DNA of 18,174 bases, taken from the NCBI GenBank assembly GCA_005222975.1, contig NJBI01000061.1, positions 1-18,174 of the forward strand, read 5' to 3'. Below are positions 6,014 through 9,559 of the stretch, in pieces. A model generated the notes under the pieces. The model was not told the origin of the DNA and did not search any database. It was given only the letters and a program-made list of their open reading frames with translations. How positions within the stretch are numbered: the stretch's first letter is position 1; each line of letters opens with the position of its first letter. Source of the stretch: Promethearchaeota archaeon Loki_b31. GTDB lineage: Archaea; Asgardarchaeota; Lokiarchaeia; Sigyniarchaeales; SOKP01. A program made the translations under genes and the position numbers.

Positions 6014-7602
6014 TCACTGATTTTGATTAAAAAGTCTACCATATCCTATTAATCGGTAACGTCTATTAATAATTCTAGAAATCGCAAATATTGAATTCTC
6101 AGGAGGGCAAATAGGTGGATTTAAATTGAGAATATAAGAGTTTTTTAAAATCTTTGTAACAGTTCCTGCTGTTTTTTCAGTACCAACAACTAATAAGAGC
6201 TTTTCGTTATGTTTAAGTTGTTGAACCCTTATTTGCATTTCAGAACCAATTACTTTTTCTAAAAGGTTGACTTTTAACTCTACTTGTGAAATAATTTCGG
6301 GTAATGTGTTAGTTTTGCCAACCAAATGCCCTATCAGAGAGTCTCCCCTTGTCAAGGCGGGATCTAATTTTGTCCCTAATCCAATTAAACCACCGAGATT
6401 AGCTTCTTCTAAAAGATTATCCCCTTGGCTAATACTTACTATTTCAGTTCTAATTGGTATAAAATCGTTCTTAACTCGAAGACCCGGCCTAATTTCGATT
6501 TCTTCACCAACTTTAATTTTACCTTTTAATACGGATCCTCCTATAACTCCGCCTCTTAATTTATTGATTTCTGTGCCTGGGCGATTTATGTCAAAAGATC
6601 TAGCAACTAAGAATTGAAATTCTTCTCCTTCACGAACTTTAGGAGAAGGTATTATTTCTTCGAACGCTCGAACTATCAGATTGATATTAACGCCAAAAAC
6701 TGCGGAAACAGGTATAATTGGAGCGTTTTCGGCAATGGAATCTTTTACAAACGCTTTGATTTGCTTATAATTTTCGTACGCTTGCTCTTTTGACACCGCA
6801 TCAATTTTATTTTGGATGATAATAATGTTCTCGATTCCCGCAATATTCAATGCGGCTAAATGTTCTCTCGTTTGTGGTTGGGGACAAACTTCATCAGCGG
6901 CAATTAGTAAACACGCGCCATTCATTAAAAAAGCTCCACTTAGCATAGTAGCCATTAAGATTTCATGGCCAGGAGCATCGACGAAGGAAATATTTCTTCT
7001 AAACTCTAAATTTTTTTTACAGTTGGGGCAAACAAATCTTGGTTGACCTTTTTTTCTAGCCGCTTCTGCCATATGATACGTAAGATATTCATCGCATTCA
7101 GGGCAGTATAGAATAGTCGCATTTGAGTATCCTAATTTTATCGAAATCCCTCTCTCTATTTCCTCAGAATGTCTATCCGTCCAATCGCCCGTTAAGGTCT
7201 TAACTAGTGTAGTCTTTATAGGAAATGCCGAAATGGCTAGATCATTCCATGGTCTACATGGCCCACTAGTCCGATATTACACTCTGCTTGTTTTTTTATT
7301 AGTTCTTTAAGGTTTGTGCTTTTTTTTGGCTTTACCTTTTTTGTTGGTTCTGCTTTTTTGGCGGGTTTCTCTTTTACATCCAATTTTAAAGTTTCTACTT
7401 CTGACGATTTCTCCTTCAGTAATAAGCCTGCACTTTCAATGAATTTCAACGCTGTTGCTTTACCAATACCTTTGATTTTTAGTTTCACAATATCCTCTGG
7501 TTTAGACGAAGCTAATTTTTCAACAGAATTAATGCCTGCTTGTTTAATTTTTTTAGCTGTTTCTGATCCGATGCCTTTTACATCCTCTAATTGATTAACC
7601 AT
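6014..7602 (-). CDS. eif2g: Translation initiation factor aIF2/eIF2 gamma with N-terminal HhH extension; two exons join(7245..7602, 6014..7215), 519 aa after removal of a 29-nt intron
   Basis: Exon 1 ends NIGLVGHVDHG. Exon 2 continues KTTLVKTLTGDWTDRHSEEIERGISIKLGY, Zn ribbon CPEC...CPNC, DAPGHE, QPQTREH, NKID, PVSA, RSFDINRPG, GGVIGGS, RYRLIGYG. Exon lengths are 358+1202=1560 nt = 520 codons. The ORF track splits the gene into 7237..7602 and 6014..7072. Confidence 0.93.
7216..7244 (-). other. Candidate 29-nt bulge-helix-bulge mRNA intron in aIF2-gamma
   Basis: mRNA-sense sequence UGAUCUAGCCAUUUCGGCAUUUCCUAUAA. Central 4-bp helix AUGG(7250-7247)/CUAU(7221-7218), with 3-nt bulges AAU(7246-7244) and AAA(7217-7215). 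Cleavage after the 2nd nt of each bulge gives CAU GGA A|AG ACU ACA = HGKTT. Confidence 0.82.
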
Positions 7603-7713
7603 AATAGATTAATTATTTCATTATAATTATTTATTACTAATCTTTTCTTAATTTTATTAATTCTCTTTAGAAAAATTAGAAAAAAAATAACTACTCTTTT
7701 TTAATCGTTAATA

Positions 7714-9186
7714 CTAGATTTCCCATTCATCATATAACCTTTTAAGGGTATTTCTCCCTACTCCATATTTTTTAGCTAATTGTGTGAGGGAAGAGTTTTT
7801 AAGGAGTCCTTGTAAATTTTCCTTGCTTCCTATTTTTTTTTTTAGCAATTCTCTTTTTGTTAAGTAATTTGTTTTGATATTCCATTCATCCATTAGATTA
7901 AGGCGTGTTTTATACCCAATTTTGAGTTCTTTAGCCGTCTTTTCTTTTCCATCTGTCTCAATCATGTTAATTAAATTTTCTTTAGTTTTAACTTTCGCTT
8001 TCAATTTTTCAACAGCAGATATTTTCTTCACATTAACATCCCACTCAATAGATAATTTATGTAAAGTATTAAAAGAAACTTTCAACATCTTTGCTAATTT
8101 TTCTTTCCCATGTGTCTTGATTACTTTTTCTAGGACTTCTGGACTTCTAATCTTGTTTTTAATAGTTTCCATAACATGTAATTGCTCGCTAAATCTTTTT
8201 CTTTTCCTTGTTAGACTATTATGATAAGAGTCCATCATTTTATTTAACAAATTAGGATTTAGAGCAAACTCATATATCGGTTTTGTTCGTTTGATTTTAA
8301 ATTTTAACTCTTCAGATAATTCGTCAACCTCACGCTTTCTAATCTCTGTTTTTATCTTATATACATTCTTAATCTGTAGTAGAAAGGAATAATTAGTAGA
8401 GTAGATAATTGTTCCTCCTTCTTTTCCATCTCCATCATAAATCCCAAGTAATAGTGCATAAGAAAGATTATTATTTTTTAAGTTAAATTTTAGTTCATTT
8501 CCTTCTTTAAATTCTCTTAATCCTAGGTTTTCAATATCTTGAAACATTGGTTTGCATGTAAAAATGATATAAACTAGACGATGTTTTTTATTATTAAGAA
8601 TCTTTGTTCTTTCACCAATTTTAGCTGGATTTAAACCTACAGCACGACAAAATTTAACTAAATGACTTCTATCTTTTTTGGATATTTCTATAGATACCTG
8701 ATATCTTTTTCTCGAAGGATCATTACCACTTGTGATTGAGCCATCTGAACATAGAAAACCAAACCAATAAGTCTTTTCAGCCGTATCAAGACATTTGAAA
8801 AAACGAGATTTTAAGTGTGGATTATATTTCTTCCATTGCTCGTGGAAGTAGTGTTTTAGATCCCTATTTACATGGTGATATTTCTCTATATTTTTTAGAA
8901 CTAATTCACTTGAAGGTCCATATTTTTCTTGTATATTCTCCTTTGCAATTTTTAATACTTTTATGGAAAATTTATAATTAGGATTATAATCTGGATTATG
9001 TGAGTTTCTTATTTTAGATAAAATATGTTTTAAAAAATGTTTTCCTTTATTAAAAATCATAACACTAATATTTTCTAAAAGCTTAGTTTTTGAGAGATTT
9101 TTAAGCTGATCATCAATATCAGGAATATTTTGTAATAGGTCATTAATTAGATCCAATGTTGTATTGGTGTGATTGTTATTGTTCAT
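7714..9186 (-). CDS. Free-standing double-motif LAGLIDADG endonuclease-like protein with three C-terminal HTH repeats
   Basis: Motif 1 YWFGFLCSDGSI and motif 2 ALLLGIYDGDG. The C-terminal 159 aa are three 53-aa HTH-like repeats. No intein splice residues or host-gene flanks. Confidence 0.82.
   Translation of the reverse strand: MNNNNHTNTTLDLINDLLQNIPDIDDQLKNLSKTKLLENISVMIFNKGKHFLKHILSKIRNSHNPDYNPNYKFSIKVLKIAKENIQEKYGPSSELVLKNIEKYHHVNRDLKHYFHEQWKKYNPHLKSRFFKCLDTAEKTYWFGFLCSDGSITSGNDPSRKRYQVSIEISKKDRSHLVKFCRAVGLNPAKIGERTKILNNKKHRLVYIIFTCKPMFQDIENLGLREFKEGNELKFNLKNNNLSYALLLGIYDGDGKEGGTIIYSTNYSFLLQIKNVYKIKTEIRKREVDELSEELKFKIKRTKPIYEFALNPNLLNKMMDSYHNSLTRKRKRFSEQLHVMETIKNKIRSPEVLEKVIKTHGKEKLAKMLKVSFNTLHKLSIEWDVNVKKISAVEKLKAKVKTKENLINMIETDGKEKTAKELKIGYKTRLNLMDEWNIKTNYLTKRELLKKKIGSKENLQGLLKNSSLTQLAKKYGVGRNTLKRLYDEWEI
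7717..8193 (-). repeat. Three tandem 53-aa HTH-like protein repeats
   Basis: The repeats end KLAKMLKVSFNTLHKLSIEWDV / KTAKELKIGYKTRLNLMDEWNI / QLAKKYGVGRNTLKRLYDEWEI at an exact 53-residue period (aa 332-384, 385-437, 438-490). Confidence 0.85.
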
Positions 9187-9331: not shown

Positions 9332-9559
9332 TTACTTGGTTGTTTCTAACGTTTTAATCGCCCCAGGTTTTTTCTCGAGTTCTTTATACGAAACTCTTAA
9401 AAGACTATCAAAATAAAAAGTAGATGTTTTACCACAAGATTCGCTTTTATGAAGGATATACACCGGAGCGGGATATTGAGACGAGTCGATATCTTCTATC
9501 TCTATAGTGAATACTATTTTCTCATGGCAAAACGGACAAGTGTTAAATCTAATCGGCAT
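9332..9559 (-). CDS. Small hypothetical protein, possibly Zn-binding
   Basis: 75 aa with CPFC and H-x4-C (HKSESC). ATG start, co-oriented with the LAGLIDADG gene. Confidence 0.7.
   Translation of the reverse strand: MPIRFNTCPFCHEKIVFTIEIEDIDSSQYPAPVYILHKSESCGKTSTFYFDSLLRVSYKELEKKPGAIKTLETTK

Follow-up and report, generated by a model that had tools for sequence, protein, structure and literature searches.

The 18,174-nucleotide (nt) stretch of contig NJBI01000061.1 from Promethearchaeota archaeon Loki_b31 (assembly GCA_005222975.1) carries on its minus strand a free-standing, double-motif LAGLIDADG endonuclease gene (open reading frame (ORF) 7714–9186, 490 amino acids (aa)) and, directly downstream, a gene for the translational GTPase eIF2-gamma that is split by a 29-nt bulge-helix-bulge (BHB) micro-intron without an ORF (7216–7244). 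We call the whole stretch the window and its genome G000; other G numbers denote compared genomes and L numbers compared loci. We consider it fairly likely that the nuclease gene and the intron are the two halves of one selfish mobile cassette that moves by collaborative (trans) homing. According to this proposal, the nuclease would recognise the uninterrupted DNA encoding the eIF2-gamma P-loop, GHVDHG|KTT, and cut intron-less alleles. A cassette-bearing allele would then serve as the template for repair of the break, and the intron would be co-converted with exon 1, the promoter and the upstream nuclease gene. In a carrier, the intron would split the recognition site and thereby give immunity to the carrier's own nuclease, and EndA (the tRNA-splicing endonuclease) and the RtcB ligase would remove the intron from the mRNA, so that the gene would still work. 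Once the cassette was fixed, the nuclease gene would be expected to decay and the intron to persist, precise deletion being rare. We infer the cleavage site, the immunity given by the intron, the homing process and the splicing of the intron from sequence comparison. The other GTPase P-loops of G000 have 15–19 of 24 core positions in common with the restored eIF2-gamma site, and therefore do not contradict a specific target.

The split in the host gene is read directly from the window. Exon 1 (7245–7602, minus strand) encodes a helix-hairpin-helix (HhH) domain (Pfam HHH_5, E = 1.6e-11), a Lys-rich linker and the peptide NIGLVGHVDHG, followed by the first base of a Lys codon; its frame continues past NIGLVGHVDHG with MI and then a stop. 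A second frame, open from position 7276, reads KTTLVKTLTGDW (KTTLVKTLTG...) and ends at 6014. Exon 2 itself (6014–7215, minus strand) begins with (A)AG ACT ACA, that is KTTLVK, runs to the stop codon and matches Pfam GTP_EFTU, GTP_EFTU_D2 and eIF2_C. Taking out the 29 nt (UGAUCUAGCCAUUUCGGCAUUUCCUAUAA, minus strand) restores the universal P-loop GHVDHGKTT, with the break point at GHVDHG|KTT. The gene is single-copy in the G000 assembly (3.5 Mb, 92% complete), and its exon 2 has 96–97% amino acid identity to the intron-less alleles of the closest relatives. The nuclease gene lies upstream on the same strand at a distance of 111 nt; this spacer (7603–7713), from the nuclease stop codon (7714–7716) to the eIF2-gamma ATG (7602), is presumably the eIF2-gamma promoter. 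The original prediction had described a double-motif LAGLIDADG gene with acidic residues 111 nt upstream on the same strand, and an intron in the most conserved motif of the host gene; the ORF and motif reading bears out the former and the position in the P-loop the latter. The 29-nt intron that it had proposed stands in presence and length, and its placement is refined to 7216–7244, one base off the simplest reading.

The first line of evidence for a cassette is the distribution of the two parts among related genomes. The locus is syntenic in the genus (J, I, C25 peptidase, 75-aa gene, the nuclease where present, HhH-eIF2-gamma, C, B), and the intron was found in 12 eIF2-gamma alleles among 42 genus genomes (G000, G002, G003, G004, G005 C165, G012, G014, G015, G047, G049, G051 and G056). 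Five of these 12 alleles have a nuclease gene or a remnant of one: it is intact in G000, frameshifted in G014, and reduced to a 69-aa C-terminal remnant in G015, to a 29-aa remnant in G056 and to approximately 20 nt plus the downstream spacer in G002. No nuclease or remnant was found beside the approximately 27 intron-less eIF2-gamma alleles. The series from intact through frameshifted to remnant is, to all appearances, the decay expected of a homing endonuclease. Scanning metagenomes with the alignment of the nuclease added 14 loci, nine of which include DNA downstream of the nuclease gene; in all nine (59–100% protein identity), the nuclease is found directly upstream of an HhH-eIF2-gamma gene with a 29-nt intron. 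One of them, LAZR01005385 from the LCGC14 marine sediment metagenome, belongs to a lineage outside the genus and combines nuclease and intron with another type of exon 1. Orthologs at 56–100% identity, intact or decayed, thus occur only upstream of intron-bearing alleles (nine metagenome loci and five genus genomes). Within the genus, matches above 45% identity were obtained at the eIF2-gamma locus only, and a search for related loci among the genome contigs gave no confirmed relative. Sporadic in occurrence, inserted at a fixed site, decayed in some relatives and missing from sister genomes, the nuclease gene shows the marks of a selfish element.

The second line of evidence is an independent pair at another gene, EF-1alpha. 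In G044, a paralogous nuclease (approx. 40% identity) lies between a 170-aa gene and EF-1alpha, which reads MPTDKQHLNLVIIGHIDHG, then MIR and a stop, and resumes with (K)STMMGALL after a 33-nt insert whose BHB core is AUGG AA^U ... CCAU AU^A. Six EF-1alpha genes of the genus carry such an intron (31–33 nt) at GHIDHG|KST, a P-loop position identical to that in eIF2-gamma. Beside these intron-bearing genes, the nuclease is intact in G044 and G054, a pseudogene with stop codons in G018, reduced to remnants in G019 and G042, and absent from G041. G101 and G141, which belong to another genus of the family, each have an intact nuclease with 40–42% identity upstream of EF-1alpha and a 32-nt intron at the same position. 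Among 25 intron-less EF-1alpha loci inspected, 24 showed no trace of a nuclease. The exception, G010, has a weak match (L101 587–718; 45% over 44 aa) upstream of the 170-aa gene, which may be a displaced remnant or another paralog. In the G000 assembly itself, no EF-1alpha gene was found at E ≤ 1e-60, and the gene probably lies in the unassembled part of this 92% complete genome. That paralogous nucleases each stand beside paralogous GTPase genes interrupted at the same codon appears to us the strongest argument for an enzyme biology tied to the site.

The third line of evidence comes from the structure of the eIF2-gamma locus, where the nuclease, promoter, exon 1 and intron vary together as a single dimorphic block. 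There are two forms of exon 1, deeply divergent from each other: type A starts with MV[NY]QLEDVKGIGSETAKK and type B with MTNDLEEVSGIGKATADR. All intron-bearing genus alleles but that of G003 have type A, which is also present in the intron-less recombinant G009; the remaining intron-less alleles have type B, and a type-B-like exon 1 accompanies the intron in G003 and in the LAZR lineage. In the tree of exon 2, two clades are well supported, and within these intron-bearing and intron-less alleles stand side by side, less than 0.05 substitutions per site apart. Between G000 and the intron-less G017 and G021, nucleotide identity is 92–98% in the flanking genes H, G and C and in all of exon 2, versus 64–70% in the 110 nt before the start codon and in nt 1–240 of exon 1. 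The 111-nt spacer of the window is 84–86% identical to that of most intron-bearing genomes of the other clade, versus 65–70% for the intron-less sisters. The left end of the divergent block coincides with the nuclease insertion point; its right end fades approximately 55 nt before the intron site, and past it the coding sequence is nearly invariant, with only two synonymous differences at the junction. The same pattern is seen in the other clade between G004 and G008 (flanks 93–96%, block 63–70%). Block dimorphism in two clades documents the co-inheritance of nuclease and intron, with coexisting alleles that lack both.

Two genomes illustrate how the two allele types meet. In the recombinant G009 (L013/L047), promoter and exon 1 are of type A up to approximately 95 nt before the P-loop site and of type B from there on, with neither intron nor nuclease, showing that recombination with an intron-less allele can remove the intron. 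The metagenome-assembled genome G005 contains two eIF2-gamma alleles, an intron-less one of type B (C106; L011/L045) and an intron-bearing one of type A without nuclease (C165; L134), which suggests that both types coexist in one sample or population. A recent spread of the cassette across clades was also considered and is not supported: exon 1 of type A and that of type B are about equally divergent between clades, and a recent sweep is not seen in the data.

These observations also bear on the most serious alternative, namely that the two elements are linked and independent: an ordinary free-standing endonuclease would target its own empty site, intergenic or nearby, and an older, unrelated BHB intron would merely sit on the same haplotype. 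Such an association would account for the single linkage block that nuclease, type-A exon 1 and intron form in the genus, for the many intron-bearing alleles without a nuclease, and for the EF-1alpha gene of G041, where the intron stands on a promoter background of the intron-less type with no nuclease trace. However, the same coincidence would be needed twice, since the EF-1alpha pair occupies the same P-loop codon in two genera. Moreover, the LAZR lineage has nuclease and intron on a different exon-1 type, and neither nuclease nor remnant accompanies the approximately 27 eIF2-gamma alleles without an intron, or 24 of the 25 such alleles of EF-1alpha. We thus regard independent linkage as rather unlikely.

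Several points nevertheless weigh against collaborative homing. No nuclease trace was found at the other seven of the 12 intron-bearing eIF2-gamma alleles of the genus. Within the genus, a single haplotype unites nuclease, type-A exon 1 and intron, and their co-occurrence there could reflect linkage alone. The similar divergence of types A and B between clades implies either that the dimorphism is old or that both forms have been exchanged, and seems to fit an old, maintained dimorphism as well as a recent invasion. Most other paralogs of the nuclease (28–39% identity) are not beside a recognisable split gene. Two contigs from sequencing runs that lack exactly the intron, described below, are not counted as splicing evidence. 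Finally, the proposal presupposes a route for DNA from one Asgard cell to another.

In the balance, the possible collaborative homing pair of the original prediction is supported by the co-occurrence of its parts, by the EF-1alpha pair in two genera and by the dimorphic block, and its caveat that the adjacency might be coincidental is strongly argued against by the same comparative data. Co-occurrence of intron and nuclease in related genomes, which it had proposed as a check, holds at nine metagenome loci and in five genus genomes versus none of the approximately 27 intron-less alleles. Two of the observations that it had named as refuting the pair are touched on here, and neither stands on inspection. 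The first was an intron widespread without the endonuclease: the intron does occur without it in some genomes, but remnants persist in several of these, as the life cycle of homing endonucleases predicts. The second was close endonuclease homologues at unrelated loci: homologues exist there, but these are just paralogs with 28–39% identity.

The collaborative-homing proposal supposes that the insert is spliced, and its structure agrees with this. In the BHB geometry, each strand has, 5' to 3', the 4 nt of the central helix and then a bulge of 3 nt, in which the cut falls after the second base. In the window the central helix is AUGG/CUAU and the bulges are AA^U and AA^A, so that exon 1 terminates in AUGG AA^U and the intron in CUAU AA^A. 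Of three coding-equivalent registers, exactly one fits this geometry and places the intron at 7216–7244. The allele of G012, which reads ...CCUAUAG^AGACA downstream, yields a Lys codon only in the same register; the register is thus fixed by both the BHB geometry and the G012 Lys codon. Across the 23 introns compared (17 from eIF2-gamma, 29–30 nt, and six from EF-1alpha, 31–33 nt), the architecture is AUGG[NA^N]-hairpin-C(C/U)AU[NN^A], and the central helix, AUGG with CUAU or CCAU, is fully paired in 23/23. All 23 also have the intron-side hairpin, whose sequence varies with pairing kept (GAAUU/AAUUC, GAUUA/UAAUC, AAUAAGAC/GUCUUAUU, AUGUCA/UGGCAU). Among the 12 distinct eIF2-gamma sequences, 85.6% of cells are paired, versus 29–51% with slid partners; two-sided changes occur at four pairs, and the observed covariation score was reached by none of 500 shuffles.

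The exon-side outer helix has just 1–3 bp (79% of cells paired), and the motif is a relaxed BHB, this helix being short. Relaxed BHB motifs need an EndA of broad specificity. The splicing genes of G000 comprise two EndA-family genes (97.7 and 70.5 bits) and RtcB (562 bits), and two EndA paralogs may form a heteromeric, broad-range splicing endonuclease, which would fit relaxed BHB motifs. The two genes are located at C13:36116–36340 and C79:5005–5253, with approximately 200 aa each. At the junction, the synonymous sites are fixed as CAT GG-N-A in intron-bearing alleles; intron-less alleles have CAC or CAT with GGT, GGG, GGC or GGA. Minimum free energy folding of 121 nt around the intron gave no significant z-score, because the BHB is a local motif that global folding misses. 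In a genus-wide scan for the pattern ATGGAATGA...TCCYATA, true matches were restricted to eIF2-gamma and EF-1alpha, and six others fell inside continuous reading frames.

We consider it very improbable that the insert is not an intron and instead marks a pseudogene, an assembly artefact, or a site of frameshifting or bypassing. The weak exon-side helix of 1–3 bp could be cited in favour of this view, as could the fact that spliced RNA was not seen in the four sequencing runs compared (three metatranscriptomes and one library that is probably DNA). In these runs, two contigs lack exactly the 29 nt, one from metatranscriptome X17 and one from the probable DNA library X15, and both are 4–5% divergent from the window. 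The X17 contig has CAC and the AAA/ACT/TTA variants found in intron-less alleles, e.g. G009, and the X15 contig is ambiguous. However, the interrupted gene is the sole eIF2-gamma copy, and the insert recurs in independent assemblies and metagenomes; the perfectly conserved BHB core and the hairpin covariation likewise speak for an intron. Frameshifting and bypass were examined as candidates and rejected: frame 0 stops within two codons, a −1 shift would add approximately 10 residues to the P-loop, and there is no matching landing codon for a bypass.

As to the other half of the putative cassette, the LAGLIDADG core of the nuclease is preceded by a conserved helical domain at the N-terminus and followed by three repeats resembling helix-turn-helix (HTH) motifs at the C-terminus. 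Motif 1, WFGFLCSDG (aa 141–149; 8740–8766, minus strand), contains the putative catalytic residue D148, and motif 2, LLGIYDGDG (aa 246–254; 8425–8451, minus strand), contains the putative catalytic D253, which is E in some orthologs. In an alignment of 91 homologues, G143 of motif 1 is invariant and D148 at least 90% conserved, both being invariant in the 14 orthologs; in motif 2, G248 and G254 are invariant, and D251, G252 and D253 (D or E) at least 90% conserved. Ratios of non-synonymous to synonymous substitution rates (dN/dS) of 0.16–0.49 among intact orthologs indicate purifying selection. The HTH-like repeats (aa ~335–490; 7717–8184, minus strand) give weak matches to Pfam HTH_8 and HTH_26 and are visible in the ortholog alignment; the paralogs with 40% identity have one. 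This region, which probably extends DNA binding, reached a predicted local distance difference test score (pLDDT) of 73–85 in a first AlphaFold2 (AF2) model.

Membership of the LAGLIDADG family rests on profile search and predicted fold. Pfam hmmscan gave no LAGLIDADG match, either on the whole protein or on the core region at E ≤ 10, and a single-sequence phmmer search against the PDB reached E = 0.073 only. The nuclease family comprises 2447 representative proteins at E ≤ 1e-3, and a profile of the 91 homologues, searched against PDB sequences, retrieved LAGLIDADG enzymes only, with E-values from 7.6e-5 to 3e-3 (I-HjeMI, 7.6e-5; I-AniI, 1.5e-4; I-Tsp061I, 3.3e-4; also I-DmoI, PI-PkoII and PI-SceI). 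An initial AF2 run with 14 sequences left the core at low confidence, which was resolved with the 91-sequence alignment: the model of aa 1–345 has a pLDDT of 93.8 and a predicted template modelling score (pTM) of 0.85. With this model, all 24 Foldseek matches at E ≤ 0.001 are LAGLIDADG proteins, and those with a probability of 1.00 include the single-chain proteins bI3 maturase, I-AniI, I-DmoI, I-SceI and I-OnuI. The predicted pseudo-dimeric alpha-beta-beta-alpha-beta-beta-alpha LAGLIDADG fold is thus confirmed at the level of the model.

The conservation of this protein could also be explained by domestication, the LAGLIDADG protein having become a DNA-binding regulator of the adjacent translation-factor gene, through its HTH repeats, or having taken another host function. 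The moderate purifying selection (dN/dS 0.16–0.49), the extra HTH repeats and conserved N-terminal domain, and the constant position directly upstream of the GTPase gene on the same strand are all compatible with such a role. A domesticated protein would, however, hardly be pseudogenised and deleted repeatedly in close relatives at both loci, nor be absent from most genus genomes, and both putative catalytic acidic residues are kept in all intact copies; domestication therefore seems to us improbable. Least probable of the explanations considered is that of a maturase, in which the LAGLIDADG protein would assist the splicing of the micro-intron, much as group I introns are assisted by bI3 and I-AniI. 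The best structural matches do include the bI3 maturase and the bifunctional I-AniI. However, for BHB introns EndA does the cutting and RtcB the joining, and a maturase is not needed; both enzymes are encoded in G000, and the intron persists in the sole essential copy of the gene in at least seven genus genomes without a nuclease gene.

The proposed cassette of nuclease and BHB intron has partial counterparts in known systems. In cyanophage S-PM2, the free-standing endonuclease F-CphI and a group I intron in psbA that carries no ORF are described as a case of collaborative homing (Zeng, Bonocora & Shub 2009, reviewed in PMC3984707). As in the window, a free-standing endonuclease gene adjoins a gene with an ORF-less intron at a conserved site; the logic is also that which we propose here, with cleavage directed at the site of intron insertion, immunity conferred by the intron and joint inheritance of the two parts. 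In contrast, that system involves a self-splicing ribozyme intron, a phage and an Endo VII-like nuclease, whereas the present locus combines a 29-nt, presumably protein-spliced BHB intron, an archaeal chromosome, a LAGLIDADG enzyme and an essential translation GTPase. In phage T4, Bonocora et al. in 2011 are said to have found that mobA and the 50-nt translational bypass element of gene 60 move as a cassette. There too, a tiny non-coding insert (50 nt versus 29 nt) lies in an essential gene beside a free-standing homing endonuclease, disrupts the target and is neutralised by a host process, as would be the case here; neutralisation is by ribosome hopping in gene 60, versus the proposed splicing by EndA and RtcB. 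The mobile elements of T4 have been reviewed (PMC2988022).

Other counterparts are archaeal. In the crenarchaeal cbf5 pre-mRNA, a BHB intron occurs in a protein-coding gene (PMC2738675). Its lineage-specific presence and absence resemble the situation described here, but no endonuclease or mobility mechanism has been described for it, whereas the present intron interrupts a P-loop, is present in some and absent from other near-identical genomes, and is linked to a nuclease gene. To our knowledge, cbf5 is the main textbook example of a BHB intron in an archaeal protein-coding gene. Archaeal rRNA genes contain mobile BHB introns that encode the LAGLIDADG enzymes I-DmoI, I-Tsp061I and I-PorI. They share with the present locus the link to a double-motif LAGLIDADG enzyme, and I-DmoI and I-Tsp061I are among the matches listed above; in rRNA, however, the ORF lies inside a long intron, whereas here it lies outside, approximately 470 nt upstream of a 29-nt intron in a protein gene. 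Inteins, for their part, sit in the P-loops of translational GTPases and of ATPases (aIF5B/IF2, EF-2, VMA). As proposed here, a selfish LAGLIDADG element thereby occupies the most conserved motif of an essential gene, and a partial likeness is that homologues of the present nuclease occur within long ORFs. Inteins are nevertheless removed at the protein level with the nuclease embedded in them, whereas removal would here be at the RNA level and the nuclease is not in the insert.

Full-text literature searches returned no description of BHB introns in Asgard GTPase genes, nor of a BHB intron paired with a free-standing endonuclease, and a recent preprint on Asgard tRNA introns makes no mention of LAGLIDADG enzymes, homing or mRNA introns. 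In our estimation there is about an even chance that Asgard archaea harbour an undescribed class of two-part mobile elements, a free-standing LAGLIDADG enzyme with an ORF-less BHB micro-intron, that homes into the P-loop codons of translational GTPases and has already jumped between eIF2-gamma and EF-1alpha. If so, homing would be a route, at the DNA level, by which BHB introns enter protein-coding genes and spread, the tRNA-splicing machinery of the host serving as the 'antidote', and collaborative homing, so far a matter of phages with group I introns or a bypass element, would extend to cellular archaeal chromosomes and to introns spliced by enzymes. The locus offers a concrete, testable mechanism, with natural replicates at two essential genes and genomes that would represent every stage of the life cycle. 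The system may yield new meganucleases that recognise long targets in GTPase codons of universal conservation, and the Asgard host makes its intron biology relevant to ideas on the origin of eukaryotic genes. In practical terms, the locus is a warning to annotators: in these genomes, eIF2-gamma and EF-1alpha are miscalled as truncated or split genes.

Some further observations concern the relatives of the nuclease. In some orthologs and paralogs, the LAGLIDADG module forms the C-terminal end of very long frames (765–1353 aa), as in the metagenome orthologs L087:3120–6446 and L088:618–4259 and at C96:617–4675, C5:15207–18176 and C38:31001–33295 in G000. The N-terminal 600–730 residues of these frames are extremely acidic (E/D-rich) and of low complexity, which is not an intein layout. 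A third conserved paralog site (36–39% identity) is found in L057 (G017:C65) and L058 (G010:C78), between sulfatase-like and glycoside-hydrolase-38-like genes and on the opposite strand; no split gene is visible at this site. A scan for BHB motifs with ORF restoration beside the other paralogs gave false positives by the dozen at each locus, the DNA being AT-rich, and was abandoned.

Elsewhere in the window, a 75-aa gene (9332–9559, minus strand) comes first in the minus-strand gene order, upstream of the nuclease. The genome also encodes a full-length eukaryote-like actin (442 bits) and Snf7 homologues. The N-terminal fusion of the HhH domain to eIF2-gamma (7285–7602, minus strand, in the window) is found throughout the genus; in other genera of the order, two of the three eIF2-gamma sequences checked have a Lys/Ser/Thr-rich extension of 120–127 aa instead of the HhH domain.

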